From Dictyostelium discoideum (lineage: Eukaryota), in NCBI GenBank assembly GCA_000004695.1, contig CM000150.2, positions 32,001 to 96,000 on the forward strand: 64,000 nt of DNA. The letters run 5' to 3'. Below the pieces are notes generated by a model. That model had not been told where the DNA came from and made no database searches. It worked only from the letters and a program-made list of their open reading frames with translations. Positions 3,591 through 61,786 of the stretch are shown here, piece after piece; position 1 is the first letter of the stretch, and each line of letters opens with the position of its first letter. Both the position numbers and the translations under genes were made by a program.

Positions 3591-3839
3591 TTTTTGATAT
3601 TTATTAACAATTAAAATAAAAAATATATATAAAAATAAATAAAATAAAAGAATGATTTACATACTAAATTTTAATTCTACGATAAGTCTTAACAAATATT
3701 GTTTAATATTATATAAAATTTTTGTTTTAAATAATGCGTTTTATTAAAAAAAAAAAAAAAAAAAAACAAATTTCATTTTAATTTTAAATCTTATAATTTT
3801 TTTTTTTTTTTTATTATTTTTTTTCACTTGAAAAGGTGT

Positions 3840-7884: not shown

Positions 7885-7889
7885 ATCAT

Positions 7890-10049: not shown

Positions 10050-10192
10050 AAAAAATTCGTTGAACTTATTTACATAACTTTTACATTTTTACGTAACTTT
10101 TTCTTTTTTTTTTTTCTTTTTTTCCAATTTTCTTTTTTTTCGGTTGGAAATTATAGGATTTTAAAAAAAATTAAAAAAATATTATAAAAAAA

Positions 10193-10482
10193 ATGACTCA
10201 CAATAATTCTACATCATTTGAAACACCAAATAGAAGTGGTAATTATGTAAATAGATCATCTTTAACTTCACCAACATCACCAATAACACCAATACCATCT
10301 CTTATTTTAAATCAAACTGATACCTCCATAGGTCCACAACGTACTGTTAGAAGACAACAAAGACCTCAAAGACCAAATGCAAGTCATCCACCAACAACAA
10401 ATATTGTAGAAAAAATATTGGTGTATGAAACATTGCACAGAAATTGTGTTTCTCAATACTATGCAACTGGTAAGGTAAGATA

Positions 10483-10530
<48 letters not shown>

Positions 10531-11179
10531 GACTAATTAAATTAAATAAACAAAAACAATACATAAGATTTCCTCTCGTTTTATTAGGACCTGTATATTA
10601 AATGCTGGCGGTACAAATTCAAATGAAAATAAAGTTGTTCTATCCAAATTGGTTAAATGGGTCAACAATAAACGTGGTAACACACGTATTAAAGCCCTAA
10701 ATACCCTTAGACTTTTAGTTAGAAATAAAGTAGAACAGTTCAGCGAGTTGCTCTCTCAGGTTCCAGCATTAATGGAGTATGAATCGGTATGTAAAAAAAA
10801 AAAAAAATAAAAAAATAAAAAAAAAAAAAAAAATAAAAAAAAAAATAAAAAAAAAAAAAAAAATAAATTATTAATAATTTGTTTTTTTAATTTTTTAATT
10901 ATTATTTAGATAACTCCTTTTGATTTGGCCACTCTTATTATCGATACAGTTACCTTAGAAGCTTTTGACTCCGATCCTTTTGTAAAGTTCTTAGTGTCTC
11001 AATGCTTTACAATTGAAGAAAAAGAATGGTACAGCGGTTCCAAACCTCTTATTTCTTTAATAGTTAAAGCATTGCGTGGTGTTTCTCAAAAGTTCATTGA
11101 CTCTCCTGATGAACTTACTTACACTGAAAAGGTTGCTTTTGAATTCACTTCAATACCTCTTTATGCTCCACTAAATTAA
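10193..11179 (+). CDS. Family-A second gene (accessory protein of unknown function), 3 exons: about 10193-10474, ~10568/10588-10786, ~10909-11179. Exact splice phases not resolved by hand.
   Basis: Exon 1 ends ...YYATGK followed by GTAAGA. AT-rich introns end in AG. All three exon translations are conserved in family B (39540-40243, and 61147-61900 reverse) while the introns are not. Confidence 0.5.
10488..10525. repeat. Poly(A) tract (~38 nt) inside intron 1 of the family-A second gene
   Basis: Homopolymer; the corresponding tract in copy 2 (34483-34541) is ~59 nt. Confidence 0.9.
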
Positions 11180-11340
11180 ATCGTTTAAATAAAAAAAATT
11201 AATATGATTTCACATACTCAACTTTAATTTTTTCTTTTTTTTTTAAATCTTTATTTAATTTTTATTTTAAATTTTTATTTTTAATTTTTATTTTTAAAGT
11301 GATATTATTAATATATCTTATTAAGTTAACTTTATAATAT

Positions 11341-11760
11341 AAATTTATAAATGCACTTTTAAATTGAATTTTATAAATATAATTAATAAGAATACTTAAT
11401 AAGTGTACTTATAAAGAGTACATTATAATTATAAATAGTAATTACGCTTAATAAGTATACTTAATAATAATACTTAATAATAATACTTAATAAGTATACT
11501 TATTAAGTATACTTATTAATTTTACTTAATATGTATACTTATTAATTTTACTTAATATGTATACTTAATAATTATACTTAATAAGTATACTAATTAATTA
11601 TACTTAATAATTATACTTAATAATTATACTTAATAAGTATACTTAATAAGTATACTTAATAAGTGTATTTAATAAGTATACTTAATAAGTATACTTTATA
11701 AGTATATTTAATAAGTATACTTAAAAAGTATACTTTATAACTATACTTATTAAGTACACT
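11341..11760. repeat. Tandem array of ~15-17-bp units (TACTTAATAAGTATA and variants): subterminal repeats of family A
   Basis: Visible periodic repetition; the same array is at 35341-35760 and related arrays flank family-B ends (30300-30480, 36400-36480, 40808-40920). Confidence 0.75.
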
Positions 11761-11825
11761 TTATAATAGTACTATTTACATTCCTACTTTAAAGATGCTT
11801 TTAAGTATTTTTTTTCGCCCCTGTG

Positions 11826-12127: not shown

Positions 12128-12764
12128 CACAGCAAAGAAAAATGCACCTTTAAAGCAAATTTAAAGCAAAGTTGATTTAAATTTGATTTAAATTGAATTT
12201 AAAGCCGCATTTAAAAAATTCATTTTTAAGGTAATTTTTAAGGTTATTTTTAAGATATTTAAAAATGCTTTTAAAATTTGCTTTAAAATAAATTTTTAAG
12301 CAATTTTAAAGGTGATTTTAAAGGTGATTTTAAAGGTGATTTTTAAGGTAATTTTTAAGATAATTTTTAAGATATTTAAAAATACCTTTAAAATTTATTT
12401 TAAATTAATTTTAAATTGAATTTAAGTAGATTTAAAGTAGATTTATAGTGAATTTAAATTTCCTTTAAATATAAATTTAAGGTTTTTAATAAAAAAGATC
12501 TAATTTTAGATCAAAATGGGGATAAAATATTCTATCAATTTTAAATTTTCATCAAAGCAATCAAATGGTGAAATGGTTGATGAGACTACCCTTTGATAAA
12601 GGGTCGGGGGGTAGAATCCCTTTTGGTAATTTTTGAAAAATTTAAAAAAAAAATTAAATAATTTTATCCGTTAAATAACGGCTTCGAACTCAGGACCTCG
12701 CTTTTAAAGCGATTAAAAAGGTTATTTTAAAGGTAATTTTTAAGGTGATTTTAAAGTAAACTTT
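12128..12764 (+). mobile_element. CACAG-terminus nonautonomous (MITE-like) element, copy i, 3'-truncated; contains GGTGATTTTAAA-type tandem repeats and a tRNA-like module (about 12545-12720)
   Basis: Starts CACAGCAAAGAAAAATGCACCTTTAAAGCAAATTTAAAG, the same as the termini of the complete copy at 55858-56605. Confidence 0.55.
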
Positions 12765-12812
12765 TAAATTTTTCAAGTAGCTTTAAACTTATTGAGTTTT
12801 CAATTCCCAACA
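12765..12812 (-). mobile_element. 48-bp fragment of the family-B transposase gene (reverse orientation)
   Basis: Reverse complement matches 37500-37547 (..FLMLGIENSISLKLLEKF..). Confidence 0.45.
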
Positions 12813-29513: not shown

Positions 29514-30255
29514 AAATAAATTAAATTTTTAATTTATATTATCATATATATATATATATTATGAAATTTGGACAGTATTTAAGAAACCACCAGATTTTTC
29601 ACCAATGATTCTTTTATCGTAGAAGGTATCTACAGTATCGTTTGATTTCCAACGACCCATCTTCTTGACAACGTGGAACGGAACGTTATTGGACAACAGC
29701 AGAGAAGCCATAGCGGAACGGGTAGAGTGAGATTTGAACTTGACAATATCAATACCTGACTTTGAGAGTGTTGATAGTACAATTGAATTAATATCATTAA
29801 CTTGGAGCGGTTCACCCTCATTCTTAATAAAGACAGAGTCACCCGAATGGGGCTTTCTTCTTCCTTTAGAGGCTCTAAGGTATGTTGCAAGGTGGCGAAC
29901 AGGGCATACTTGAGAGTTTGTATCATCTAACGAAGTTAATTCTAAGATTGAAACAACACCACTTCTTTGTTCTTTAGCATTAATAACTGGACCTTTGATT
30001 GAGTCAATAGTAATAATGAGACCTTTGAACGACCACTTCACCAAGTCTGATGATCTTGCTAAACCAAACATTTTACAGAGTACAAGTGTCTTGTTTAATA
30101 ACGCAGTGTATGTGTACTTAGGGATAACTTTGATAGTAGATAAGTGCTTGAATACTTGGTTTGCATCCCATATCTCTTTATACTTTGCTGATGAAGGACG
30201 CAACTTGTGAATACCAGTCATAATTCTTGTAATGAATGGATCATTAACAATATCA
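29514..30255 (-). mobile_element. DIRS-1 fragment D7: 3' ~740 bp (recombinase C-terminus 29559-30221), truncated at 30255 by a family-B terminus
   Basis: ORF 29559-30221 matches the ORF2 C-terminus. The expected continuation ..aacaatatcagtttgattcc is replaced by cacagcggcgaaaatc. Confidence 0.8.
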
Positions 30256-30505
30256 CACAGCGGCGAAAATCAACACTTTAAAGCACCTTTAAATCCAAGT
30301 ACTCTTTTTAATATATATTAATAAGTATACTTAATAAGTAATACTTAATAAGTACACTTAATAAGTATACTTAATAAATATACTTTATAAGTACTACTTA
30401 ATAAGTACACTTATTAAGTATACTTATTAAGTATACTTATAAAGTATTACTTTTTAAGTATACTTATTAATATATATTAATAATTAATTATTTTTATTTT
30501 TTTTT
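30256..30505 (-). mobile_element. Family-B right-end fragment (inverted): terminus CACAGCGGCGAAAATCAACACTTTAAAGCACC plus TAAGTATAC-type repeats
   Basis: Reverse complement of 40808-40976. Confidence 0.55.
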
Positions 30506-31270
30506 TTAAAAAATGTTTTGTGTGGGAATTGAACCCGTGACCTCCCTTCCTGAAGTTCCGTGGAAATGTTTTATGTGGGAATTTAACCATGACCTCCCTT
30601 CTGGAAGTTCCGGGGGAAAAAATGTTTTATATGGGAATCGAACCCTTGACCTCTACCTTATTAATTTATCGTATTTCTATGTAAGCTATAGACACTTTGA
30701 TAATTTTCATTGAAAATAGCTATAATATGAATGTTAAAAAACTTCCAAGTAAAAAAAAAAAGAATGTGAAATAACTCTGTGGTTGTTGTATTATTGATAT
30801 TGCTGTATGTAATTTCTATTGCTGTTGCTGTATTAGTGATGTTGTATTATTATTGTTGCTTTATTATTGCTGTTGTTGTACTATTGATGTTGCTGTTTTA
30901 TTGATGTTGCAGTCCTAACTGTTGTTGTGTTGTTATTATGTTGTAATTATTGTTGTTGTCGCACCTGTTGTGTTCAGCTACAGTGTTGTTATTGTGTTGT
31001 TATTGTGTTGTAATTGATTTTGAAGTTGTTTTGTTATTGTGTTGTTATTGTGTTTGTTGTGTTGTTATTGTGTTGTTATTGTGTTTGTTGTGTTGTTATT
31101 GTGTTGTTATTGTGTTTTTTGTGTTGTTATTGTGTTGATTTCATTTTTCAATTGATTTTGCAGTTGTTGTTGTACCTGTTATTGTTTTATTGTTTTATGG
31201 TTGCACCTGTTGTGGTTTTTATTATTGTTGCTAAAATTGTTGGTGTGTGTTGTAGTTGTTTGTTCTGTGT
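30506..31270. repeat. Left inverted arm of family-A copy 2: three tRNA-3'-half-like ~50-bp units (30513-30660), a GT-rich region, then a (TGTTGTTATTGTG)n array ending ..GTTCTGTG
   Basis: Inverted copy at 35830-36400. Units contain GGGAATCGAACCCTTGACCTC, the complement of a T-arm-like motif. Confidence 0.6.
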
Positions 31271-31289
31271 ATATATTCATAAAATTTTC

Positions 31290-31334
<45 letters not shown>

Positions 31335-31590
31335 ACTTTTTTCAATTTTTTCATTTTTTATTTTTTTTTTGCCGAAAAGGGAAAACATGCATGTTTAATT
31401 TTTAATTTTATTTTTTTTAATTTAATTTTATTTAATTCTTTTTTTTTTTTTGTATTTTTTTTTTTTTTTCATTTTTTTATTTCACTTTTTTATTTTTATT
31501 TTTTCATTTTTCATTTTTTTTTTTTCGCTTTTTTATTTCACTTTTTTATTTTTATTTTTTTAATTTATTTATTTTAAAAACATATTTGAA

Positions 31591-34041
31591 ATGGATTTAA
31601 AAAAAGTGGATTGCATTATTTGTAAACAACCAATTAAATGTTTCAAAGATATAGTTATACATTTTATTAAACATAATGATCGTTGCCCAATTTGTTTAAG
31701 CAAATATACATCATTTTCAAAAATGTATGCTTTAACAGGTCATTATTATTCACAAGGTTGTAATAATAAAAAAAATAATATAAAGGGTGAACAAAAATTG
31801 CAAGATGAATTTTATCAGAGGTTATCAAAGATTACAGGCGATAATATTATATACCCAACCAACTTATCCGATGACCCTTTCAATCATATGAGCCAACAAA
31901 ATTTAAATGAAAATTTTATAATTGATGAGAATAATAATAATTTAGAAAATGAAAATGAAAATGAAAATAATTCATTTGAGGATATAGGAAATATATTAAA
32001 CCAAAATGGACAAGAAAATGATGATATTGAAATTTTGAAAGAAAAAGAAAATGGAAATTTAGGAAAAGAATTAAATAATTATGAAATTGGATTTTTAAAG
32101 TTGGGTTTAGAAAATGCTAAATCGTTAAAATTTATGCAACAAATTTTGGATTTTTTTAAAAACAATATAAATGCAATTAATGAAATTAGATATACAACAA
32201 AGTATATGGATTCTATATTTTTAGCAAATTTACCTATCGATGGTCACTTTTTGAGTTACAAATATTATGAAGAGTCAATTTTTTATTATGAAATTTGTTC
32301 AGTTGTAAAATTATTAATTGAAAAAAAAAATTTTATAGAATATTTAGATTTCTCAAAAGACTATGAGCAAGGTATTTATAAAAATTATAAATCTGGAGAA
32401 CAATTCAAAAAAATAAAAAATTCAATTTCAGATAAATTTATTTTATTAAGAATATTTAGTGACGGAATGAGTCATCAAGGTAGATCAGATTATACTATAA
32501 TGGTGGATTTTGAAAATTATAATGGTCCATTTTTTAAAAATAACAAAATTGTTTTATTTATTGTTCCAAAAGAATGGTTTCACAATATACATCAAACAAT
32601 TAAAAAATTATTTTCAGCGCAATTTAATAATAAATTAATAATTAAAGATAATAATGGAAATGATTATGAAATTATACCATATGGATTAACAATGGATATA
32701 CCAGAATTTAGATCATCTTGTAGGATTAACCATTATAATTGCAATGAGTTCTCATGTCATACATGTGATAAACTAAGAGGTGTCGATTATTTATTAAAAG
32801 AAGGAAATTATAGAAATCAAAAAGACATTATTGACTTTCACAATTCAAAACCAAATAAACAAGATTTTTTAAATCCTCAAAATAAAATTTTAAAATTAGA
32901 AACAGAACAAAAAATGAAAAAAATCGGCATTACAGATTATGACAGATCTTGGGTAGAAAATTTAAAAATAAATTATTTGTACTTACAACCTGATATTTTA
33001 CACAACATATTATTGGGTATTGTACAATGGGTTTTAAATTATATTTTCAAAAAATATAAGGATCAAATTACAATTTTTATAAAAAAATTAAAAGAAGCTA
33101 AAATCATTCCAGATCATTTACCACCATCAGAATCTTTATTTGGTGTAAAAACAAGAAAAGGTAGAGAGAATAGAAGCATATTATATTATATTTTATTTTT
33201 TACTAAACCAAATGTATCAAATGATGATTTCTTATTATTAGAAGAAATGGTTCAGATTACTTTTTTATTATATCAAGATTCTTTCGACGAAGATGATTTG
33301 GATAAAATAAATTATTTAGTTAAAAATTTTAATAAAAAAATATTTATGATAATACCAAATGAACCAATCAACTTTCACCTTTTATTACATTATCCTTTAT
33401 ATATAAAAAATTGGGGTGCACCAAAATTTACATCAGCAGAGAGATTTGAAGCACAATTTAGTAAAATTAAAGACCTTTTGACAAACAATACAAACAACCA
33501 AGATCAACATAAATTTGAAAGAGTAACAAAAATATTAATGGCAACATTTTTAGATAATTTTAACAATCTAAAAGAAAAAGATGTTGACAATAATGATTTA
33601 ATTTTAGGGCAAATAATTAAAAAAAATGAAAATATTTATTTAAAAAATAATATTTTATCAGACATTAACTTGCATTACAAAAACATTGAAAATATTCAAT
33701 TTCATAAATCAATTAAAAATTTAAAAGAAATATATAATGTTGGTGATGGAATTGAAGTTGCCTCAGAAAATTCATTAACTGGACGATGGAGTGCAATAAT
33801 TATTGCTATTTGTTTAATAGAATTAAAAAATAAAAAAAGTGCACATTCTATTTATATACAATACTTTGATAAAGATACAGGTGATCAAAATAATAAGTAC
33901 CACTTTTTAAGAAAAAGCTTTTCAAGTATAGTATTTGATAACATAGTAAACACATTAATACCAATACAAATCGATTCGTCCAACTATCTTATAATTTATA
34001 AGTGCCATGACCAATTTTCAATAAGTAAAAAAAAAAAATGA
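31591..34041 (+). CDS. Family-A transposase, 816 aa, open: N-terminal C2H2/CPxC zinc-finger region then CACTA TnpD-like blocks
   Basis: MDLKKVDCIICKQPIKCFKDIVIHFIKHNDRCPICL..., then the motif set listed for 7890-10049. Confidence 0.75.
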   Translation: MDLKKVDCIICKQPIKCFKDIVIHFIKHNDRCPICLSKYTSFSKMYALTGHYYSQGCNNKKNNIKGEQKLQDEFYQRLSKITGDNIIYPTNLSDDPFNHMSQQNLNENFIIDENNNNLENENENENNSFEDIGNILNQNGQENDDIEILKEKENGNLGKELNNYEIGFLKLGLENAKSLKFMQQILDFFKNNINAINEIRYTTKYMDSIFLANLPIDGHFLSYKYYEESIFYYEICSVVKLLIEKKNFIEYLDFSKDYEQGIYKNYKSGEQFKKIKNSISDKFILLRIFSDGMSHQGRSDYTIMVDFENYNGPFFKNNKIVLFIVPKEWFHNIHQTIKKLFSAQFNNKLIIKDNNGNDYEIIPYGLTMDIPEFRSSCRINHYNCNEFSCHTCDKLRGVDYLLKEGNYRNQKDIIDFHNSKPNKQDFLNPQNKILKLETEQKMKKIGITDYDRSWVENLKINYLYLQPDILHNILLGIVQWVLNYIFKKYKDQITIFIKKLKEAKIIPDHLPPSESLFGVKTRKGRENRSILYYILFFTKPNVSNDDFLLLEEMVQITFLLYQDSFDEDDLDKINYLVKNFNKKIFMIIPNEPINFHLLLHYPLYIKNWGAPKFTSAERFEAQFSKIKDLLTNNTNNQDQHKFERVTKILMATFLDNFNNLKEKDVDNNDLILGQIIKKNENIYLKNNILSDINLHYKNIENIQFHKSIKNLKEIYNVGDGIEVASENSLTGRWSAIIIAICLIELKNKKSAHSIYIQYFDKDTGDQNNKYHFLRKSFSSIVFDNIVNTLIPIQIDSSNYLIIYKCHDQFSISKKKK

Positions 34042-34188
34042 AAAAAATTCGTTGAACTTATTTACATAACTTTTACATTTTTACGTAACTTTTTCTTTTT
34101 TTTTTTTTTTCTTTTTTTCCAATTTTCTTTTTTTTCGGTTGGAAATTATAGGATTTTAAAAAAAAATTAAAAAAATATTATAAAAAAA

Positions 34189-34476
34189 ATGACTCACAAT
34201 AATTCTGCATCATTTGAAACACCAAATAGAAGTGGTAATTATGTAAATAGATCATCTTTAACTTCACCAACATCACCAATAACACCAATACCATCTCTTA
34301 TTTTAAATCAAACTGATACCTCCATAGGTCCACAACGTACTGTTAGAAGACTACAAAGACCTCAAAGACCAAATGCAAGTCATCCACCAACAACAAATAT
34401 TGTAGAAAAAATATTGGTGTATGAAACATTGCACAGAAATTGTGTTTCTCAATACTATGCAACTGGTAAGGTAAGA

Positions 34477-34543
<67 letters not shown>

Positions 34544-35191
34544 AAGAGACTAATTAAATTAAATAAACAAAAATAATACATAAGATTTCCTCTCGTTTTA
34601 TTAGGACCTGTATATTAAATGCTGGCGGTACAAATTCAAATGAAAATAAAGTTGTTTTATCCAAATTGGTTAAATGGGTCAACAATAAACGTGGTAACAC
34701 ACGTATTAAAGCCCTAAATACCCTTAGACTTTTAGTTAGAAATAAAGTAGAACAGTTCAGCGAGTTGCTCTCTCAGGTTCCAGCATTAATGGAGTATGAA
34801 TCGGTATGTAAAATAAAAAAAAAAAATAAAAATAAAAAAATAAAAAAAAAAAAAAAATAAAAAAAAAAAAAAAAATAAATTATTAATAATTTGTTTTTTT
34901 AATTTTTTAATTATTATTTAGATAACTCCTTTTGATTTGGCCACTCTTATTATCGATACAGTTACCTTAGAAGCTTTTGACTCCGATCCTTTTGTAAAGT
35001 TCTTAGTGTCTCAATGCTTTACAATTGAAGAAAAAGAATGGTACAGCGGTTCCAAACCTCTTATTTCTTTAATAGTTAAAGCATTGCGTGGTGTTTCTCA
35101 AAAGTTCATTGACTCTCCTGATGAACTTACTTACACTGAAAAGGTTGCTTTTGAATTCACTTCAATACCTCTTTATGCTCCACTAAATTAA
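34189..35191 (+). CDS. Family-A second gene, copy 2: exons about 34189-34470, ~34585/34605-34803, ~34921-35191
   Basis: Identical organisation to 10193-11179; intron 1 carries a 59-nt poly(A) tract. Confidence 0.5.
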
Positions 35192-35340
35192 ATCGTTTAA
35201 ATAAAAAAAATTAATATGATTTCACATACTCAACTTTAATTTTTTCTTTTTTTTTTAAATCTTTATTTAATTTTTATTTTAAATTTTTATTTTTAATTTT
35301 TATTTTTAAAGTGATATTATTAATATATCTTATTAAGTTA

Positions 35341-35760
35341 ACTTTATAATATAAATTTATAAATGCACTTTTAAATTGAATTTTATAAATATAATTAATA
35401 AGAATACTTAATAATTGTACTTATAAAGAGTACATTATAATTATAATTAGTAATTACGCTTAATAAGTATACTTAATAATAATACTTAATAAGTATACTT
35501 ATTAAGTATACTTATTAATTATACTTAATAATTATACTTAATAAGTATACTTATTAAGTATACTTATTAATTATACTTAATAATTATACTTAATAAGTAT
35601 ACTAATTAATTATACTTAATAATTATACTTAATAATTATACTTAGTAAGTATACTTAATAAGTATACTTAATAAGTGTATTTAATAAGTATACTTAATAA
35701 GTATACTTTATAAGTATATTTAATAAGTATACTTAAAAAGTATACTTTATAATTATACTT
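35341..35760. repeat. TACTTAATAAGTATA-type subterminal tandem array (family-A copy 2)
   Basis: Same array as 11341-11760. Confidence 0.75.
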
Positions 35761-35829
35761 ATTAAGTACACTTTATAATAGTACTATTTACATTCCTACT
35801 TTAAAGATGCTTTTAAGTATTTTTTTTCG

Positions 35830-36400
35830 CCCCTGTGCAACACAACAAACAAATAACAACACAACAAACAAATAACACAATAACAACACAACAAACACAA
35901 TAACAACACAACAAACACAATAACAACACAATAACAAAACAACTTCAAAATAAATTACAACACAATAACAACACAATAACAACACTGTAGCCGAACACAA
36001 CAGGTACGACAACAACAATAATTACAACATAATAACAACACAACAACAGGTAGGACTGCAACATCAATAAAACAGCAACATCAATAGTACAACAACAGCA
36101 ATAATAAAGCAACAATAATAATACAACATCAATAATACAGCAACAGCAATAGAAATTACATAGCAATATCAATAATACAACAACCACAGAGTTATTTCAC
36201 ATTCTTTTTTTTTTTTACTTGGAAGTTTTTTAACATTCATATTATAGCTATTTCCAATGAAAATTATCAAAGTGTTTATAGCTTACATGGTAATGCGATA
36301 AATTAATAAGGTAGAGGTCAAGGGTTCGATTCCCATATAAAACATTTCCACGGAACTTCAGGAAGGGAGGTCACGGTTCAATTCCCACATAAAACATAAA
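35830..36400. repeat. Right inverted arm of family-A copy 2 (AC-rich array plus tRNA-half-like units)
   Basis: Reverse complement of about 30513-31140. Confidence 0.6.
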
Positions 36401-36913
36401 TATATATATTAATAAGTATACTTAAAAAGTAATACTTTATAAGTACACTTAATAAGTATACTTAATAAGTGTACTTATTAAGTAGTACCACAGCAAAGAA
36501 AAATGAAAAAAAAAAAAAAAATTTAATTATTTGTTTTGCATATTTATATTATAAGTATAAACATACATATAAAAAAAGATTTTTTATTTTTTATTTTTTA
36601 TAATTAATAAACAATTAACGAGTGCACAGGTATATTATTGCATTAGTGTAGTTTTACAATTAATTGGGCAGATTTTATAGTTTTTTTTTAATATTTTAAA
36701 AAGAAAAAGGTATAGACAGGGTCATAGGTTCCCCGTCATTTTTTGAAAATGGGGTATATCCCTCTAAATATAAAATTCTAAGTACTAAATCATATATCTA
36801 CTTGCTATAATGCTAAAATTTGAATAAAATGAAAAAAAAAAAAAAAAAAAACGTAAAAACTCGAGGAAAAAAAAAAAAAAAAAATTATTTTTAATTTCCA
36901 GCCAGCAAACAAA

Positions 36914-39420
36914 ATGAATTTAAATAACATATCATGCATTAATTGCAGAGAAAAATTAAAGAATTTTTAAAATATTATTATTCATTATATTATGCATAAA
37001 AATATATGTCCATTTTGTCTTGCATATTACCGTTCTTATAAACAATTTTATGATGTAAATGGACATTTCAACACCAAAAAATGTAAAAATGAACAAAATA
37101 AAATTATTACAAATAATCAAAAAAGAGATAGCTTTTATAAAAAATTAATGGATATTACTGGTGAAAAAATAAAATATCCAACAAATGATCCAGATGACCC
37201 ATGTAAACATTTATGTAACCAAAACCAAGATGAAATTTTTTATCAAGAAAATAATGAAAATAATGAAAATAATCAAACAATTGATAATGAAGAAAATCAT
37301 GATATAATTGGGTTGGTACATAGTGAAGATGAAAACAATGAAATTAGAATAGATGAAAATGAAGCAAACATTAATAATGAAAATAATGAAAATAATGAAA
37401 ATGAAAATGCTCAAAACGAACCAATAAATAATAATCTAAATAATAATTTAGATAATGAAAAATCAAAAAAAAAATTAAATGAAACTGAAATTGAATTTTT
37501 AATGTTGGGAATTGAAAACTCAATAAGTTTAAAGCTACTTGAAAAATTTAAAAGTTTTATTGACAAAAATAAAACCAATTTAAATCAAATAAGATACACA
37601 CCTCAATATATGGATAAATTATTTATTGAAGATTTTCAAATAAAAGGAGAAACATTTATAAATAAAAATTATGATCACTCAATTTTTTATTTTGAAATTA
37701 AAAAAGTATTAGAAACTTTATTAAATAAAAAGCAATTTTTTGAAAGAATAGATTTTGATACAGATTTTGAAACTGGAATTTATACAAATTATAAAAGTGG
37801 TCAACAATTTAAAGATTTAAAAAATAAAAATAAAAATAAAATTGTTTTACTTAGAATTTTCACTGATAGTATGCAGTGTCAAAACAAGAAAGATTATACT
37901 ATAATGCTGGATATAGAAAATTATATTGGAAATGAATTTAAAAATAATAAATTATTATTATTTGTAGTACCAAATGATTGGTTACTTAATTTTCATCAAA
38001 CAATTAGGGCATTGTTTTCATCTTTTATTGGTAATGGCTTTAATTTAATTATTGAAAATGAACAAATAGATGTTGTACCGTTTGGACTAACAATGGATAT
38101 TCCAGAATTTAGAGCATCGTGTAAACTTAATGGACATAATTCAAATGAATATGCATGTCACACATGTGAAAAACCAAGAGATGGTTTATTTATTTGCAAA
38201 TCAGGTACATTAAGAAAACAAGAAGATATTACAAATTTTCACTCCAACAAACCAAATTATGCTGAATTAAATGCTGATATAGAATTAAAAAAAGTATGGG
38301 AAAAAAAAGCAAAAGATATTGGTATCAAAGGTGTGGACAGAGGGTGGGTCGAACCCTTGTCTATTAATTATTTAAAAACACAACCAGACATATTACATAA
38401 TATTTTATTAGGTGTCGCGCAAAGATGTTTAAATTACATTTTTGATAAATATAAAAATAAAATTGCAAATTTTTTAAATAATTTAAAAAATGCAAAAATA
38501 ATAGATAACAAACCAAAACCTTCAATTTCACTATTTGCAAATAAAACAAGGAAAGGAAGAGAGAATAGATCAATATTATATTACCTTTTAATATCAATTA
38601 AAAATCAAATATCAAATGATGATTTTTTAATTATGGAACAATTAGTAACTATATGTTTTAAATTATATAGTGACTCTTTTGATGAAAATGATTTAAATTC
38701 ACTTCAAGTATTAATTGAATCGTTTAATGCAAAAGTAAATTTAATTACTGAAACAGAAATAATGAATTTCCACTTGTTGTTACATTATCCAATCTATATA
38801 AAAAATTGGGGAGCACCAAAATACACTTCAGCTGAAACTTTTGAAGCACAATTATCAAGAATTAAAAATTATTTAAAAAATAATACAAATAATAGGGATG
38901 AACAATATGAAAGGGTTACCAAATTAAACATGGTGAAATTTTTTAATTCAGTAGATAAATTAAAAAGTATTGAACCTGAAAGTACAGCATTAATTATTGG
39001 TTACAAAATAAAAAATCCAGATAATTTAGATAACATAAAAATTAAATTAGATTCATTATTTCAAAACTATAAAAATATAACTTTTCACTCATCAATTAAA
39101 AATAATTAAGAAATATACAATGTTGGTGATGCAGTTGAAGTTGCATCAGATAATGAACTTTCAGGTAGATGGTCAGGTATTATCAATTCAATATCAATGA
39201 TTGAAATGGATGATAACATAATAAAACATGCAATATTATTAAATTATTTTGACAAATATGTTGGTGACCAATTTAATAAATACCAATAATTAAATTATAT
39301 TACATATGATAATATTCTAAATAATGTTATACCAATTCAAATTGATGATACCAATTACCTTATTATTTACAAATGCCACGATAAATTCTCGGCTTCAAAA
39401 AATAAAAAATCAAAAAATTA
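36914..39420 (+). pseudogene. Family-B transposase (about 830 codons), disrupted: +1 T near 36965 (MNLNNISCINCREKLKNF*), in-frame TAA at 39107, further stops in the C-terminal domain
   Basis: 705-aa ORF-track piece 36992-39109 is homologous to the family-A transposase (same motif order). The undamaged N-terminus is seen at 12031-12127. Confidence 0.65.
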
Positions 39421-39539
39421 AAAACTTTTTTACATAATTTTTACATTGTTATGTAAATAATGATTTTTTTTTTTTAATTTTTTTTCATTTTCGGGCAGAC
39501 TGAAAAAGCGAATATGATTTCAATACATATTTTTTTAAA

Positions 39540-39920
39540 ATGAATTCATCTGCAAATTTTATAGCACCAAATGGTAATGTACCTGATTTTAACCAATCAC
39601 CAATCCAAAGAAGAACAAACAATAATATTTCTATCGGAGATGAATCATTTAATAATTTGTCAATAGGTAATGTATTAGGAAATGCAAATGCTCCAAACCC
39701 AATGGAAAACCAGAGAATAATTAGAAGAGTTCCAAGGCCAACTGTTCCACCAATCCAAGAAACAGTGCAAATAGCCACAAACCCACGTGTAACATACATA
39801 TTGGAATACGAAAGTCTTCAGAAAGTTTGTCAAAGTAAATACTATTCAGATGGCGATGTATGTTACCATTTGGTAATGAAATTGTGTGTATAAATTTATA
39901 TAATCAAAATTTACAAAATA

Positions 39921-39968
<48 letters not shown>

Positions 39969-40243
39969 AAATATAGTTTTCCCCTGCTTTACTTTCTCTT
40001 TTTCTCAGCCACATTAATTATGAAAATTATCAAAATGATATTTTCATAAAAGAGTTTGTTGACTCTTGTAAAACAGGTGAAGAGAAACACTGGTACCCAG
40101 ATTCAGTTCCTTTAATAAAGAGATTAATTTCAATATTAAATGATTTTAGTAGTAAATTTGACTCTAAGGCTAAAATGAGAAAAGATGCACAAGAAGCTTT
40201 TCAATTTCCTCATTCTGCACTTTACTTAAATTCTTCCCAATAA
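39540..40243 (+). CDS. Family-B second gene lacking the middle exon: exon about 39540-39857, intron with poly(T), exon ~40009-40243
   Basis: ..TYILEYESLQKVCQSKYYSDGD | ..EEKHWYPDSVPLIKRLISILNDFSSKF.. is homologous to family-A exons 1 and 3. Confidence 0.45.
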
Positions 40244-40489
40244 AAGTTTTAAAATAATTTTTAAAATTTAAAAATAAATTTTATTATTAAAAAATAATAT
40301 ATCTGTGTATTTTATTGTTCACATAAAATTTTATTTCATACTATAGTTTTAAAATAATTTTTAAATTTTTTTTTTTATTTTTGTGGCATTATTAATAAGG
40401 TGCTTTTAAATGTAATTATTAATAATCTTTAAAATTCAATTTTTAAGGAGCTTTAAAATGTAATTATTAATATAATTTTTAATCATATT

Positions 40490-40690
40490 TTTAAGTAATT
40501 TTAAAGAGCATTATAAAGTTAATTTTAAAGGGCATTTTAAACTTAATTTTAAAGAGCATTATAAAGGTAATTTTAAAGGTCATTTTAAAGGTAATTTTCA
40601 AGGTCATTTTAAAGTTAATTTTAAAGGTGATTTTAAAGGTAATTTTAAAGGTGATTTTAAAGGTGATTTTAAAGGTGATTTTAAAGGTCA
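40490..40690. repeat. Tandem ~10-12-bp repeats (A)GGTGATTTTAAA and variants: subterminal repeats of family B, also present in the MITE-like elements (12290-12360, 56370-56420) and at 60630-60900
   Basis: Direct visual periodicity. Confidence 0.8.
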
Positions 40691-40976
40691 TTTAAATAAT
40701 TGCTTTTAAATTAATTTTTAAGTGACTTTTTTATAGGACTTTAAATCCACTTTTAATTTAATTTAAAGTTGCTTTAAAGGTGTAATTTTCATCGCTGTGA
40801 CTTATAAAGTATATTTATTAAGTATACTTATTAATTGTACTTATTAAGTATTATTTATTAAGTATACTTATTAATTGTACTTATTAAGTATTACTTATTA
40901 AGTATACTTATTAATATATATTAAAAAGAGTACTTGGATTTAAAGGTGCTTTAAAGTGTTGATTTTCGCCGCTGTG

Positions 40977-41926
40977 GTTGATCACAGTGCAGATACGTTT
41001 CGATTTTAAAATTCACATCTACCCTTGCACCTTTATTGTGTAGCAATTTGACCAGATCTACCTTATTTTTTTTCACTGCCCAATTCAACAACTTCTCACC
41101 GTTATCATTAATCGCAACATCTAAGTCTGGGAGTTTACTCTTGGAAGAAAGGTAAGTTGTTAGAAGAAGGTTTAACAAATCATTACTCGGCCATGCGAAG
41201 CCAAACCCAGAGAGGTTTTTTTTTCACTATCTCGTTAAGCATTTCTGTAATAACGTAATCGCTATTACCCTCACCACGCAGTTCGATTATCATGGCAATT
41301 TATTCTGGGTTAAGTTGTTTCTTTTGGCTTTTACTAAATGCTGATCTACCAAGAGATAATTGTAACTTGGCGCTACACGAATTTGAGCAGGTTGGTGGCG
41401 TACCGGTTTCCATTCTAGCTAAATAGTTCTTAGCGAGGATGCGTTTGAGCGCTCCACATAATGGACAGTAGAAGTCGAAGTATACACCGCCTTTCTCTTT
41501 CAAAAATCTGCGATAACGTTCACTCTTAATTCGATTCTCTTCTACTGTAAGAATCTGATATCGTCATTGGTCCTATCTTCATCCATGTGATCTACTTGTT
41601 CATTGGGCGATAATAATCTACCCAACTTCACCGACATTAAGTATTATGCGTAAGTCCGAAACGATCATGGCTGCTGTTGAAGCGTTTTCTTTTATCAGAA
41701 CACTCGATTAGATATCCGAGAAGCCATTGTTCTTTAAAACGGTAACTGCAACTCTAAACGCATTTTGACTCCTTAATGGTCTATCAAGGTAGTCATGTAG
41801 GACTAAGAATATCTGCCACCGAAACCAATCATTCTACCAACTGAACTACACGAGCAAATATGGAATGAGACCTAGGAGTCGAACCCAGGACCGCCGGATT
41901 TGAATCCTATGCTCAACCAAGTGAGC
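40977..41926 (-). other. Higher-GC island between the family-B terminus and a DIRS ITR: degenerate ORF with zinc-ribbon-like (41300-41503) and ankyrin-repeat (40977-41178) pieces in different frames, plus two tRNA-like sequences (about 41770-41845 and 41851-41925)
   Basis: ..YCPLCGALKRIL..CSNSCS..; ..DVAINDNGEKLLNWAVKKNKVDLVKLLHNKGARVDVN.. fits the ankyrin consensus; T-arm-like CTGGGTTCGACTCCTAG. Confidence 0.45.
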
Positions 41927-44900
41927 TCATATTTAAAAATTTAATTTATTAAATTATATTTGAATTTCCCAAATATTTAAGATAATTTTTTAGAATGTTC
42001 TAGAACATTCGAAGAATAAAAAATTTTCGAAAGAAAAGTAAAAATTTCGAACCGGCACAATGACGCGATCATTGCGCAAGGTCGAAAAATTAAAAATTTA
42101 ATTTATTAAATTATATTTTATATTAAATATATATATATATATTATGAATAACATTTATTTATTTGAATTTCCCAAATATTTAAGATAATTTTTTAGAATG
42201 TTCTAGAACATTCGAAGAATAAAAAATTTTCGAAAGAAAAGTAAAAATTTCGAACCGGCACAATGACGCGATAATTGCGCAAGGTCGAAAAACTGAAAAA
42301 TTCCGAACCGACACTATGCACAAATTTGTGAAGGGTCGAAAACTCTTATTTTTTTGAGTTTTGCGAAATTTTTAAGAAAATAAAAACGTATAAATAGTGG
42401 CACTAAAAACTAAAACAATTTGATTTATGGAATTCCGACTAAGGGCGGGTGGGATGGGACTAATATATATATATATATTTAATATAAAATATAATTTAAT
42501 AAATTAAATTTTTAATTTATATTATCATATATATATATATATTATGAAATTTGAACGACAGTATTTAAGAAACCACCAGATTTTTCACCAATGATTCTTT
42601 TATCGTAGAAGGTATCTACAGTATCGTTTGATTTCCAACGACCCATCTTCTTGACAACGTGGAACGGAACGTTATTTGACAACAGCAGAGAAGCCATAGC
42701 GGAACGGGTAGAGTGTGATTTGAACTTGACAATATCAATGCCTGACTTTGAGAGTGTTGATAATACAATTGAATTAATATCATTAACTTGGAGCGGTTCA
42801 CCCTCATTCTTAATAAAGACAGAGTCACCCGAATGGGGCTTTCTTCTTCCTTTAGAGGCTCTAAGGTATGTTGCAATGTGGCGAACAGGGCATACTTGAG
42901 AGTTTGTATCATCTAACGATGTTAATTCTAAGATTGAAACAACACCACTTCTTTGTTCTTTAGCATTAATAACTGGACCTTTGATTGAGTCAGGAGTAAT
43001 AATGAGACCCTTGAACGACCACTTCACCAAGTCTGATGATCTTGCTAAACCAAACATTTTACAGAGTACAAGTGTCTTGTTTAATAGCGCAGTGTATGTG
43101 TACTTGGGGATGACTTTGATAGTAGATAAGTGCTTGAATACTTGATTTGCATCCCATATCTCTTTATACTTTGCAGATGAAGGACGCAACTTGTGAATAC
43201 CAGTCATAATTCTTGTAATGAATGGATCATTAACAATATCAGTTTGATTCCTAAGGAGTAACAACTGATTCAACATAGATCGATGACCGTTAATTGTTGA
43301 GAAAGCTAACGGAGGTTTGTGTTTGAATAGATGTGTAAGATAATCTATGAAAACAACTAAGGTAATGTTTGCTGGATTCAAAGAGTTCAAAGTACAGAAA
43401 TTGCGGAATCTTGTATAACTGGAGCTATATACTTTGAGAGTTGAAGGTTCCCAAGACTTCATTAACAGCTCAGCTGTTTTTGTATTTGTTGTACGAGCAA
43501 AGGACATTACATGAGATTGGAAAGTTGAATAATCCCCAGCTTCCAACGTTGTTGAATCTGGATTGGTATCGACTCTACTGATTGTTTGGTCAATACTTCT
43601 TGGAATGTTCCCAGTACTTGAGGAAACATGTGACGATGATGACGAGGAACTTGTGCTTGAATCATCGGATACCAAGTTGCTGATCTCCAGATTGGGAAGA
43701 TCAGTATTATAGAAACCTTCTTCGAACTGGATGAGTTCATCTTCTCCAGGATAGAAGGCAAAAGAATGGGTGGTGGGAAGGCTAGACATTGCTTCCATTG
43801 ACTCCAATCGAGGTGGAGTGCATTCATTCTTATTGTTGAGTAGTTGTTCGTTTGATGGTTGAGGTGAGATGCGAACAGATCCATCTGTATTTGACCGAAT
43901 TGAAGTTGGATGCGATTGAACACTTCCTTCTTCAGTTGCCAGTTGTAACTCTTGATTACTCTGGTCGATGATTTGTGATTCATCTCTGAAAGACGACTGA
44001 GGTGGTCGGCTTTTACATTGAAGAATCCTGGAATATGCTCTCCAATTAAGTTTACTTTCTTCTTGAGGCATTGTTTCCAAAGTTGTTCGAACAGAACTGA
44101 GAGATCTTGTATTTGACCACCCTGGCGATTGATATAAGAGAGAGTGGTAGTGTTGTCGGTTTGAATCTTCAGCTTGCAGTTGTTCAGTTTCCGACATAGC
44201 GCTTGATAGGCCATCAGCAGCGCGAGCATTTCTCGACGATTTGACGACATGTTTGATTGAGTTGTTGACCACTGGAATGACCAAGTTTTGATTACCTTGT
44301 TTCCTTTCTTGAGAGTGGCACCTGCACCTGATTCCGAGGCATCGGTTGTAAGAACATAGTCGTAACTTGGAAACAGACTGATTTCTTTTCCATTCCATTG
44401 GTTTAGAACTGTTAACCAATGTGAAATCTCTGACTTGACGTCTTGAGGAATGGGGAATGATTGATCCCAATCTCCATTGGCTAGAGTCAGACAGTGAGAG
44501 TGAAACTTGTTTGTTCGACGAGTGTAAAGTCTGAAAGGGATGACTGCATCTTTCAGTGCGATTAGCTTTCCTTTTAAACCAGCAAGCTTTCTTGGGGAGC
44601 AAAAATCTAGTTTTAAAAAGTTTCTTATTTCTTTGATGACACTTTTCTTCTTTTCTTTGGGAACAAGAAGCTTCATTGATACCGAATCGATTTGTAATCC
44701 GAGAAACGTAATTGATTGAGTTGGTTCGAGAACACTCTTTTCTAGGTTTAACTTGAAACCTAGTTTGACAAGTAAGTCCATTGTCTTTTTGAGGTTGGAT
44801 AAACATTCTTCTTTTGTTGAACCTACGATTAATAGATCGTCCAAGTAAGCGATGACGGATACGTTGATATCTCTCAACATTCGAAGTACAGGTCTTAACA

Positions 44901-54900: not shown

Positions 54901-57290
54901 CTTCCTTTGTGATGCAATCTGATTTCGGACCCTCTGGAATTGAAATCGGAATTGGGTTTAGCATCGGCTTGAAATTTGGAAGCAGATGGACTTTTAATCC
55001 ATTTACAACCTCTTGACAAAAGTTTAGAAGACCCAATTCTTTCCAAACTTGTTTGTGGTGGAACAGACGTCCACCTACTGGTAAGTTTACTTCTTGTTCT
55101 TCTGAAAACGGTTGTTGGTACCGTTGGCAGACTTTGTATTGTTGCTACCTGATGCAACAATACTTGGTGATCCATTGAAGTTGTTAGATCGGCCATTACT
55201 CCCACTACTGGATTTACCATTACTACTGTTTCCTGTAGTGTTATTACCACTTGAGTTAACTGATTTCTTGACATTGGACTTGGAATGATAATTCAATTTT
55301 AACAATGATTGTTTAGCTTCGTTGTTCTTTCTGATTGACTTGGCTAGCTTTCTTACACGTTCAGTTTCAGTTTCATCAAACATCTTTGGTGTATCCTTGA
55401 TCTTAATTCGTAAGAGTACTTCAGAACCATAAATTTCTTTAGCGATGTTGTTACGACGGACACGACTAAGCGATGCTTGAGCATTAACGGCTAAGACGAT
55501 TGCACTCTGAGTTAAATAACTAATAAGTTCTAAATCGACATTAGAGCTATCAGATGATAACATACTTGACATGAGAAGCAAAGGTTTTAAGCTATCGTTG
55601 ATTCGCTTTTCGACAATCAACAAGTCAGTATCATTGTTCTTGACGTTGGATGATACAGTAATACCTTCAGGTGTACCGAATGGAGCGACATTCACTTGGA
55701 AGTTAGATGGAAAGTTGAATACTTTATTCAATTCGGATATCTCATCTTTCTTGAGGATACATTCTTCTTCGACGAATAAACCTTGATTGTTAACCATATG
55801 TTTGTACTGACCAAGTAAAGTATCGGATAATTGATAATCGGTTGGAAAATCGACATTCACAGCAAAGAAAAAACCACCTTTAAATTCGCTTTAAATTAAA
55901 TTTAAATTTGCTTTAAAGTCCTGAATTAAAGCAATTTTAAAGGTAATTTTAAAGGTAATTTTTAAAGGTTACTTAAAATCACCTTAAAAAATTACATTAA
56001 AATTACCTTTTTAATGGCTTTAAAAGCGAGGTCCTGAGTTCGAATCCGTTATTTAACGGATAAATTTTTTAAAATTTTTTTTTTAATTTTTCAAAAATTA
56101 CCCAAAAGGGATTCGATCCCCCGACCCTCTATCAAAGGGTAGTCTCATCAACCATTACACCATTTGATTGCTTTGATGAAAAATTTAAAAATGATAGAAT
56201 ATTTTATCCCCATTTTTTTGTGCTAAAATTAGATCTTTTTTATTAAAAACCTTAAATTTATGTTTAAAGGAAATTTAAATTCACTTTAAATCTACTTTTA
56301 ATCTACTTTAAATCCTATTTAAAATTAATTTAAAATAAATTTTAAAGGTATTTTTAAATATCTTAAAAATTATCTTAAAAATTACCTTAAAAATCACCTT
56401 TAAAATCACCTTTAAAATCACCTTTAAAATTGCTTAAAAATTTATTTTAAAGCAAATTTTAAAGGCATTTTTAAATATCTTAAAAATTACCTTAAAAATT
56501 ACCTTAAAAATGAATTTTTTAAACGCGGCTTTAAATTCAATTTAAATCCAATTTAAATCAACTTTTCTTTAAATTTGCTTTAAAGGTGCATTTTTCTTTG
56601 CTGTGTTGTTACTTGATTCATCTTCACTTTGTTCATTCTCAGTGTCAGAGTCATCATGAGAAGGTTGGCTACGTGAATTGGTATTAGATGAGAACATAGG
56701 TTCTTTCATGAATCTAGTAAAGGCTAAGGAAAGGTTGTTGATTTGATCCTCCATTGACTTCATTCTTAAATCAAAGGATTCAGCACTATTAGAGGCAGAG
56801 GTATTGCTACTAGAGGCTTCATTATTATTAACAGTGGTAGACATATTTTATTGTTGATATCTAAAATTATAATATGAGAAAAATAATAATATTAAAAATT
56901 AATAAAGAGAAATAATTATTTGTATAAAATTTGTGTGTGTGTGTATCTTAAATATATATAGGAGGAATTCCCAAATAAAATAAATCGAATTGTTTTAGTT
57001 TTTAGTGCCACTATTTATACGTTTTTATTTTCTTAAAAATTTCGCAAAACTCAAAAAAATAAGAGTTTTCGACCCTTCACAACTTTGTGCATAGTGTCGG
57101 TTCGAAATTTTTCAGTTTTTCGACCTTACACAATGATCGCGTCATTGTGCCGGTTCGAAATTTTTACTTTTCTTTCGAAAATTTTTTATTCTTCGAATGT
57201 TCTAGAACATTCTAAAAAATTATCTTAAATATTTGGGAAATTCAAATAAATAAATGTTATTCATAATATATATATATATATGATAATATA
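51991..57290 (-). mobile_element. DIRS-1 copy D11, full-length-derived: recombinase C-terminus 52173-53429, frameshifted ORF3 pieces (53093-55036), ORF1 split by a MITE-like insertion, left ITR about 56870-57290
   Basis: ORF1 residues 79-335 at 55087-55857 and residues 1-78 at 56606-56844, separated by the 748-bp element. Confidence 0.85.
55858..56605 (-). mobile_element. Complete MITE-like nonautonomous element (748 bp) with ~15-bp TIR CACAGCAAAGAAAAA / TTTTTCTTTGCTGTG, internal GGTGATTTTAAA-type repeats and a tRNA-like module (about 56040-56180), inserted into DIRS ORF1 codon ~79
   Basis: Uninterrupted ORF1 reads ..atcgacattgttacttg.. (e.g. 17780-17800). Here atcgacatt + element + ttgttacttg, an apparent 2-bp (TT) duplication. 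Confidence 0.7.
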
Positions 57291-58692: not shown

Positions 58693-60530
58693 AAAGAGAT
58701 AGCTTTTATAAAAAATTAATGGATATTACTGGTGAAAAAATAAAATATCCAACAAATGATCCAGATGACCCATGTAAACATTTATGTAACCAAAACCAGA
58801 TGAAATTTTTTATCAAGAAAATAATGAAAATAATGAAAATAATCAAACAATTGATAATGAAGAAAATCATGATACAATTGGGTTGGTACATAGTGAAGAT
58901 GAAAACAATGAAATTATAATGGATCAAAATGAAGCAAACATTAATAATGAAAATAATGAAAATAATGAAAATGAAAATTGTCAAAATGAACCAATAAATA
59001 ATAATCAAAATAATAATATAGATATTGAAAAATCAAAAAAAAAATTAAATGAAACTGAAATTGAATTTTTAATGTTGGGAATTGAAAACTCAATAAGTTT
59101 AAAGCTTCTTGAAAAATTTAAAAGTTTTATTGACAAAAATAAAACTAATTTAAATCAAATAAGATACACACCTCAATATATTGATAAATTATTTATGGAA
59201 GATTTTCAAATAAAAGGAGAAACATTTATAAATAAAAATTATGATCACTCAATTTTTTATTTTGAAATTAAAAAAGTATTAGAAACTTTATTAAATAAAA
59301 AGCAATTTTTTGAAAGAATAGATTTTGATACAGATTTTGAAACTGGAATTTATACAAATTATAAAAGTGGTCAACAATTTAAAGATTTAAAAAATAAAAA
59401 TAAAAATAAAATTGTTTTACTTAGAATATTCACTGATAGTATGCAGTGTCAAAACAAGAAAGATTATACTATAATGCTGGATACAGAAAATTATATTGGA
59501 AATTAATTTAAAAATAATAAATTATTATTATTTGTAGTACCAAATGATTGGTTACTTAATTTCCATCAAACAATTAGGGCATTGTTTTCATCTTTTATTG
59601 GTAATGGCTTTAATTTAATTATTGAAAATGAGCAAATAGATGTTGTACCGTTTGGACTGACAATGGATATTCCAGAATTTAGAGCATCGTGTAAACTTAA
59701 TGGACATAATCCAAATGAATATGCATGTCACACATGTGACAAACCAAGATATGGTTTATTTATTTGCAAATCAGGTACATTAAGAAAACAAGAAGATATT
59801 ACAAATTTTCACTCCACCAAACCAAATTATGCTGAACTAAATGCTGATATAGAATTAAAAAAAGTATGGGAAAAAAAAGCAAAAGATATTGGTATCAAAG
59901 GTGTGGACAGAGGGTGGGTCGAACCCTTGTCCATTAATTATTTAAAAACACAGCCGGACATTTTACATAATATTTTATAAGGTGTCGCACAAAGGTGTTT
60001 AAATTACATTTTTGATAAATATAAAAATAAAATTGCAAATTTTTTAAATAATTTAAAAAATGCAAAAATAATAGATAACAAACCAAAACCAGCAATTTCA
60101 CTATTTGCAAATAAAACAAGGAAAGGAAGAGATAATAGATCAATATTATATTACCTTTTGATGTCAATTAAAAATCAAATATCAAATGATGATTTTTTAA
60201 TTATGGAATAATTAGTAACTATATGTTTTAAATTATACAGTGACTCTTTTGATGAAAATGATTTAAATTCACTTCAAGAATTAATTGAAAGTAAATTTAA
60301 TTACTGAAACAGAAATAATGAATTTCCACTTGTAATTACATTATCCAATTTATATAAAAAATTTAGGTGCTCCAAAATACACTTCAGCTGAAACTTTTGA
60401 AGCACAATTATCAAGAATTAAAAATTATTTAAATAATAATACAAATAATAGGGATGAACAATATGAAAGGGTTTCCAAAGAAAACATGGTGAAATTTTTT
60501 AATTCAGTAGATAAATTAAAAACACAGCGA
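58693..60530 (+). mobile_element. Family-B copy 2: internal transposase-gene fragment (residues ~47-600), frameshifted, lacking both termini
   Basis: ORFs 58883-59506 and 59582-59980 match 37300-38400 at protein level with frame breaks. Confidence 0.6.
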
Positions 60531-60532
60531 TG

Positions 60533-61421: not shown

Positions 61422-61471
<50 letters not shown>

Positions 61472-61749
61472 TATTTTGTAAATTTTGATTATATTAATTT
61501 ATACACACAATTTCATTACCAAAAAATACTTGGCTATCGGAAATATAAACTTTAAGATTGTGGTTTTTTTCACCTTTTGAATAAATGGCTAAACTGTCAG
61601 CTACTTTTGTTCTTGTGTTACTATCCTTATTACTTACCCATTTCGTTAACCTTGCAAAAATATTTTGACTGGTACAATCTTCGTTACTACCACCAGCTTG
61701 TTTAATTATTCCAGTAATAAAGAAATTTGAAACCTATTTATTTAAATTA

Positions 61750-61786
<37 letters not shown>

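Follow-up and report, generated by a model that had tools for sequence, protein, structure and literature searches.

The DNA transposons of Dictyostelium discoideum include the Dictyostelium DNA Transposon (DDT) class, which comprises DDT-A, DDT-B and DDT-S and was catalogued as a new class in 2001 (Glockner et al., 2001, as cited in PMC2665215, PMC5633606 and PMC9012585). D. discoideum centromeric regions are composed of approximately 49% DIRS and approximately 19% DDT elements (PMC2665215). According to a 2017 review, no transposase of a D. discoideum DNA transposon is significantly similar to known transposases, and how DDT elements transpose was left unsettled, as no known protein appeared related to theirs (PMC5633606). 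Here we describe a two-gene DNA transposon in a 64,000-nucleotide stretch of the D. discoideum genome (hereafter the window; assembly GCA_000004695.1, contig CM000150.2, positions 32,001 to 96,000 of the forward strand, with coordinates below counted from its first base). The element occupies 30256–35837 on the plus strand (5582 bp). A first-pass annotation of the window, made by a model from the letters alone, had called it family A and proposed that it may be a catalogued DDT-type element lacking a superfamily assignment; the review's statement fits this proposal.

The most relevant group of described transposases is defined by C(2)C and H(3)H motifs together with DDE residues and comprises CACTA, Mirage and Chapaev (CMC). 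Its Pfam families are Transposase_21 and DUF4218, and it has motifs in common with Transib and RAG1; a wider grouping, ‘CMCT’, also takes in Transib/RAG1, Plavaka, ESTA and Lanisha (PMC12730594). Elements of this group have 5′-CA…TG-3′ ends and generate target duplications of 2–5 bp (PMC12730594). Mirage has been merged into EnSpm in Repbase (PMC4455052). We found no published link between Dictyostelium DDT elements and CACTA, EnSpm or CMC in the literature searched, with Repbase and Dfam lying outside that search. It may be the superfamily assignment of DDT elements alone that is new, the element itself being almost certainly catalogued already.

The sequence at 30256–35837 is very probably a single, apparently autonomous cut-and-paste transposon of the DDT class, with a first open reading frame (ORF1) that most likely encodes a CMC-type DDE transposase and with a 2-bp target duplication. 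The limits follow from self-comparison of the window. A DIRS-1-type flank reaches as far as 30255, and the element opens at 30256 with CACAGCGGCG / CACAGCGGCGAAAA. The left terminus, CACAGCGGCGAAAATCAACACTTTAAAGCACCTTTAAATCC (30256–30296, plus strand), carries the terminal consensus common to DDT-type ends. The right terminus (35779–35837, minus strand; reverse complement CACAGGGGCGAAAAAAAATACTTAAAAGCATCTTTAAAG) closes with …CGCCCCTGTG, a sequence correctly read in the first-pass annotation and mistaken there for an inner terminus; its last base, 35837, is the true right end. The terminal inverted repeats (30256–30481 versus 35605–35837) are 79% identical. The end of the flank, these repeats and the end of a second copy of the element define the interval 30256–35837, and external copies agree with it, so the limits of 30506–36400 first given for the element do not hold.

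The second copy lies at 7885–11825 (plus strand) and matches 31883–35837 at 97.9% identity. It stops at the base equivalent to 35837 and has unrelated sequence directly after CTGTG, where its right end abuts a fragment of a related family. This copy is 5′-truncated, as had been noticed, and encodes a 719-aa open ORF1 remnant (AX4 protein DDB_G0267228) and a version of the second gene, ORF2. At 2.1% divergence, its earlier description as near-identical was overstated.

We compared the element with two external copies. One, in another D. discoideum assembly (L002, 4662–10223), aligns to element positions 1–5582 at 99.2% identity and encodes an identical ORF1 protein within flanks unrelated to the window. 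The other, in D. cf. discoideum (L001, 2434–10226), is 83% identical and has the same first and last bases as the window element. Both stop at CTGTG and are flanked by unrelated sequence. Approximately 2.7 kb of the D. cf. discoideum copy (2740–5436), between the left array and ORF1, is unmatched in the D. discoideum element, indicating that the left internal region varies between species. This stretch contains small called genes and lacks the tRNA-like and TG-rich repeats described below.

The element ends in CACAG…CTGTG. Eight DDT-type ends were compared, seven from the window and one from the D. cf. discoideum copy, and all have the consensus CACAGC..GAAAA....CAC.TTTAAAGCA..TTTAAA in common; each begins CACAG(C/G), and CACTA…TAGTG ends were not found among them. 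The view of the element as an apparently intact two-gene transposon with CACAG…CTGTG ends and subterminal repeat arrays is borne out. DDT-type ends in the window lie at 11825, 12128, 30256, 35837, 36489, 40799, 40976, 55858 and 56605, and three DDT families have a terminal consensus of approximately 40 bp in common, with differing internal subterminal arrays. A single large composite insertion in a DIRS-1 copy, bounded by 30256 and 40976, was also considered and was rejected because the sequence beyond 40976 does not continue that copy.

A 2-bp target duplication flanks four independent insertions (TA, CA, AC and TT), in place of the 3 bp that had been expected for a CACTA element. The duplications of the two external copies are TA (D. 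cf. discoideum) and CA (D. discoideum). The AC duplication belongs to a related 4311-bp element (36489–40799) and was checked against a reconstructed empty site: removing the element plus one AC rebuilds the left-end sequence of the first family with 78/79 identity, whereas deleting 0, 1, 3 or 4 bases along with it gives 50–53 matches (50/78 for the 3 bp of a CACTA-type duplication). The TT duplication flanks a 748-bp non-autonomous relative (55858–56605, plus strand; ends CACAGCAAAG…CTTTGCTGTG) whose insertion into a DIRS-1 copy is clean. Where the uninterrupted DIRS-1 site near 17789 reads …GACATT|GTTACTT, the occupied site reads …GACATT[element]TTGTTACTT.

ORF1 (31591–34041, plus strand) is uninterrupted and encodes 816 amino acids, as first reported. 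It is preceded by a T-rich stretch (31251–31590, plus strand) that, as read from the sequence, is presumed to hold the promoter and leader. The protein is identical to AX4 DDB_G0267250 (XP_647743.1, UniProt Q55H31), a hypothetical protein annotated as ‘C2H2-type domain-containing protein’. Its N-terminus contains C2H2/CCHC zinc fingers (C8-x2-C11…H24-x3-H28 and C32-x2-C35), in agreement with the zinc finger noted at first pass, and is followed by a predicted DDE transposase core.

To relate ORF1 to known transposases we relied on remote homology. Dictyostelium hypothetical proteins were the only hits of word-indexed searches, whether these used ORF1, a family profile or ORF2. An exhaustive phmmer scan of ORF1 against 1.8 billion representatives returned 34 hits, 15 of them from outside Dictyostelium (E 4e-7 to 1e-3). 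These 15 relatives align to ORF1 residues ~385–783, mostly within 460–720. The Pfam families that recur in them are Transposase_21 (four relatives, best E 6e-10, two above the Pfam cut-off), DUF4218 (four) and DUF1258 (three); the only other transposase family found among them by Pfam is one weak Plavaka match (E 0.075). The DUF1258 matches, which are seen in the relatives and not in ORF1, fall below the Pfam cut-off.

Profile–profile comparison extends this relationship. A Dictyostelium-only profile aligned by hhalign with an alignment of five non-Dictyostelium relatives with a probability of 98.5% (E 3.7e-15) over 390 columns (query 235–652). Repeated locally, the comparison reached E 1.6e-15 over 464 columns, against E 0.63 for a control with a column-reversed template. 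The N-terminal half of ORF1 (residues 225–460), which was unused in picking the relatives, aligns alone in the same register (E 0.004).

The conserved columns of an independent MAFFT alignment include D291 (RIFSDG), D369 (TMDIPEF), C389-x2-C392 (CHTC), H596-x3-H600 (HLLLH) and E620 (SAERFE), and the cysteine and histidine pairs are kept in nearly all aligned sequences. In both the hhalign and the MAFFT alignments, D291, D369 and E620 fall in the same columns as the D, D and E residues found in Transposase_21-bearing relatives. We predict that these three are the collinear DDE catalytic residues. The motif blocks earlier compared with those of CACTA TnpD are thus in the right register for D, D, C(2)C, H(3)H and E. 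The comparison of the C-terminus with DUF4216 is not upheld: residues 660–816, where the GDGIEVAS…YKCHD block noted at first pass lies, have no detectable similarity to the relatives (E 0.17). ORF1 appears, from these alignments, to be a divergent member and very distant relative of the CMC group. It is not CACTA in the strict sense, because the element has neither CACTA ends nor a 3-bp duplication; of the CACTA/EnSpm-type assignment made at first pass, the distant homology to the group survives.

Several observations weigh against this interpretation. Neither ORF1 nor any Dictyostelium family member matches a Pfam transposase model at E ≤ 1, and the profile check proposed for the 816-aa protein (PF02992, PF13960, PF13952 and PF13963) likewise gave nothing at that threshold; a Pfam scan of a related 705-aa ORF found nothing relevant. 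The apparent link between ORF1 and Transposase_21 is transitive and profile-based, and the N-terminal half alone reaches an hhalign probability of only 8% at its E of 0.004. AlphaFold2 gave a poor model for the ORF1 core, with a mean pLDDT of 56 and values below 50 across the RNase H-like part. Searched with Foldseek, this model has the RAG1 core as its three best solved-structure matches (E 0.02, TM ~0.35) and HzTransib as its tenth. With a low-confidence model and weak RAG1 scores, this fold result is at most suggestive, though consistent with the assignment, and neither ORF1 nor a broad profile has a sequence match in the PDB. ORF2 has no Pfam match, no recognisable domain and no usable model (AlphaFold pLDDT 42), so that any role proposed for it is by analogy. 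The window element's own duplication is an ambiguous case. CA at 30254–30255 and CA at 35838–35839 may represent a 2-bp target duplication, with a chance match expected 1 in 16; the ambiguity arises because the flanks are of different origin, a truncated DIRS-1 copy on the left and an inverted fragment of the element's own family on the right. The CA/CA pair could reflect either insertion within 2 bp of an existing junction or chance, and the L002 copy is likewise flanked by CA. Finally, assignment of the element to the DDT class, which is almost certain, is drawn from published descriptions.

The alternative that best withstands these data, although we consider it improbable, is that ORF1 belongs to another DDE lineage (Transib/RAG-like, Kyakuja-Dileera-Zisupton-type or an unnamed amoebozoan superfamily) and that the link to Transposase_21 is a resemblance at supergroup level. 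The missing direct Pfam match, the RAG1 and Transib structural matches and the weak Plavaka match in one relative are all compatible with such a placement. So are the DDT-type ends, which begin with the first five bases of the V(D)J recombination signal heptamer, CACAGTG. Transib elements generate 5-bp target duplications, a feature not shared by the window family with its 2 bp. Zisupton duplications are 8 bp (PMC12730594), again different from those observed here. In favour of the alternative, the boundary of the CMC group is itself a matter on which authors hesitate, with divergent lineages placed in or outside it (PMC12730594). Against another lineage stand the relatives found by sequence, which carry Transposase_21, DUF4218 or DUF1258 with no other transposase family, and the profile–profile alignment, which is collinear over ~400–460 columns with E ~1e-15. 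We therefore favour a CMC-type transposase.

ORF2 is encoded by three exons (34189–34470, 34585–34803 and 34922–35191, plus strand) separated by GTAAGA…AG and GTATGT…AG introns. Its 256-aa product matches the protein annotated in AX4 as DDB_G0267230 from end to end with 99% identity, and the three-exon plus-strand gene recognised at first pass is thereby confirmed. ORF2 is also kept in the related family (36489–40799), at 33–36% amino-acid identity.

The subterminal tandem repeats first noted in the element proved to be arrays of a 13-bp unit, AATAAGTATACTT, at both ends. The left array spans 30297–30496 (TRF 30314–30483, 12.9 copies, 85% matches; 13 copies when rounded) and the right array 35385–35778 (TRF, 30 copies). 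The core of the unit, AAGTATACTT, is a perfect palindrome. The window contains 30 exact occurrences of this 10-mer, every one in a first-family array, against an expectation of 0.13.

These features suggest a mechanism in which the zinc fingers of ORF1 probably recognise the conserved DNA ends, and ORF1 would cut at CACAG…CTGTG and reinsert the element with a 2-bp stagger. The palindromic arrays, by analogy, are probably multimeric protein-binding sites that pair both ends. Their binding partner could be the ORF2 protein, the obvious candidate, or the ORF1 zinc fingers. Whereas the limits of the element, its 2-bp duplication, the conserved ends, the remote homology and the conservation of the catalytic residues are shown by the data, catalysis itself and the roles of the arrays and of ORF2 are inferred. 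In En/Spm, the subterminal repeats are bound by TnpA, which brings the ends together.

The strict CACTA element En/Spm resembles the window element in its two-protein organisation, in its arrays of short subterminal motifs at both ends and in its ends starting CAC. It differs in having CACTA ends and a 3-bp duplication, compared to CACAG and 2 bp here, and its TnpA has no similarity to ORF2. The two En/Spm proteins are produced by alternative splicing of one transcript, whereas ORF1 and ORF2 are separate genes. The target duplication of Mirage elements of Caenorhabditis is 2 bp, as in the window element, and DUF1258, matched below threshold by ORF1 relatives, is a nematode protein family. With the CMC/CMCT group at large the element has in common CA…TG ends, a short duplication in the 2–5 bp range and profile-level homology. 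ORF1 is set apart from described CMC transposases by its strong divergence and by a long D-to-E spacing (250 residues), and the relatives have no detectable counterpart of its N-terminal zinc fingers or C-terminal domain.

Several features connect the element with published DDT families, from which it is not known to differ. DDT elements reside in DIRS-1-rich centromeric clusters of the same host. The DDT-B consensus is 5471 bp (PMC9012585), compared to 5582 bp for the window element. DDT-B also contains a tRNA-like A/B-box in nucleotides 1–428, which is reported to be targeted by TRE5-A, a retrotransposon that targets tRNA genes (PMC9012585), and the window element has a B-box near its left end. 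This sequence, GGTTCGATTCC, is a perfect B-box for RNA polymerase III and occurs on the minus strand in tRNA T-arm-like 53-bp repeats (30510–30653, minus strand; TRF, 2.6 copies; element positions ~255–398); an A-box was not rigorously identified. Because neither ARAGORN nor Rfam calls a tRNA in the 53-bp repeats of the 5.6-kb element, we describe them only as T-arm/B-box-like. By description, family A may correspond to DDT-A or DDT-B. A further point of agreement is the short non-autonomous 748-bp element, which is probably DDT-S. The 748-bp element contains tRNA T-arm-like stretches in which, too, no tRNA is called by ARAGORN or Rfam. A truncated copy of it lies at 12128–12771.

That the element is a dead relic, or that its genes are domesticated host genes within centromeric repeats, is very unlikely. 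Such a status could explain the AX4 annotation of both genes as ordinary hypothetical proteins and the position of the window copy, whose neighbouring fragments differ in origin, and a structural role is conceivable given that DDT elements make up ~20% of centromeres (PMC2665215). Yet both ORFs and both ends are intact, and the 99.2% identical copy, which encodes the same protein, occupies an unrelated site and has a 2-bp duplication of its own. Word-indexed searches moreover identify many copies, at 74–99% protein identity, in several strains. A short non-autonomous relative has inserted cleanly, and DDT transcripts have been detected (PMC4559204).

The least credible alternative is the 5.9-kb CACTA element originally drawn at 30506–36400, with complex terminal inverted repeats of 0.6–0.75 kb and with CGCCCCTGTG as an inner subterminal feature: 30566–31136 and 36397–35848 do form an inverted repeat of 93% identity, but homology with other copies begins at 30256 and stops at 35837, the second copy has unrelated sequence directly after CTGTG, the supposed right arm occurs once in the 99.2% identical external copy, in its left part, and lies beyond the right end of neither external copy, and the arm resumes past a 4.3-kb insertion to finish in a genuine left terminus, so that the external copies refute it. 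The long inverted arms are an artefact, and the right arm is the left end of another copy, which is inverted and truncated and happens to abut the intact one. This inverted fragment lies outside the element at 35838–36488 (minus strand; element coordinates about 871 to 136). The 53-bp repeat of 30510–30653 is mirrored within it at 36314–36390. Its remainder, at 40800–40976 (minus strand; element coordinates 177 to 1), ends …CGCCGCTGTG and is 94% identical to the reverse complement of 30256–30432. It is this continuation past the inserted element into 40800–40976, ending in a genuine left terminus, that identifies the right arm as a separate inverted copy.

The insertion that splits the fragment is the related 4311-bp element, a member of a second DDT family (36489–40799, plus strand; ends CACAGCAAAG…CATCGCTGTG; ~67% nucleotide identity). 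Both of its ends are present, and its ORF1 is degenerate and interrupted by stops. It has its own subterminal array of a 12-bp unit, ATTTTAAAGGTA, at 40487–40693 (TRF). We identified three copies of this second family, at 36489–40799, 58693–60522 and 60523–64000 (minus strand), with ~67% nucleotide and ~50% protein identity to the first family. The latter two copies meet head-to-tail at 60522/60523.

If the CMC assignment is correct, it provides candidate catalytic residues (D291, D369 and E620) for DDT elements and adds Amoebozoa as a supergroup for a transposase clade related to the RAG1 ancestor. With its ends and duplication defined, it becomes possible to annotate DDT copies in new long-read assemblies and to score insertion polymorphisms there. 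We tentatively suggest, as a possibility somewhat less probable than its converse, that DDT elements form an amoebozoan lineage branching deep in the CACTA/Mirage/Chapaev(-Transib/RAG1) clade, characterised by 2-bp duplications, by CACAG ends common to autonomous and non-autonomous families, by palindromic arrays particular to each family and by a second protein specific to the lineage, and that this assignment is recorded nowhere, Repbase and Dfam included. The result refines annotation and classification and does not describe a new kind of mobile element.

The remaining internal repeats of the element are TG-rich, with periods of 11, 17 and 34 bp (30784–31250, plus strand; TRF array at 30816–31137). 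Outside the element, the window is AT-rich and consists mostly of repeated DIRS-1-type copies that are 95–99% identical in self-comparison and encode a tyrosine recombinase (Pfam Phage_integrase). Judged by this DIRS-1-type repeat content and by the identity of ORF1 to an AX4 protein, the window is a DIRS-1-rich, centromere-type repeat cluster of D. discoideum.

We also identified fragments of other mobile elements. A 165-aa ORF (4170–4667, minus strand) matches Pfam DDE_Tnp_4, a PIF/Harbinger-type transposase family (E 2.8e-10), and represents a second recognisable DNA-transposase fragment in a genome said to be without known transposase relatives. An Integrase_H2C2 fragment, a remnant of a long terminal repeat (LTR) retrotransposon, lies at 6063–6542 (minus strand). 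A 75-aa ankyrin-repeat ORF (40951–41178, minus strand) overlaps the inverted fragment by the final 26 bases of its terminus, which ends at 40976, and extends into a GC-richer, otherwise unique stretch at 40977–41956.

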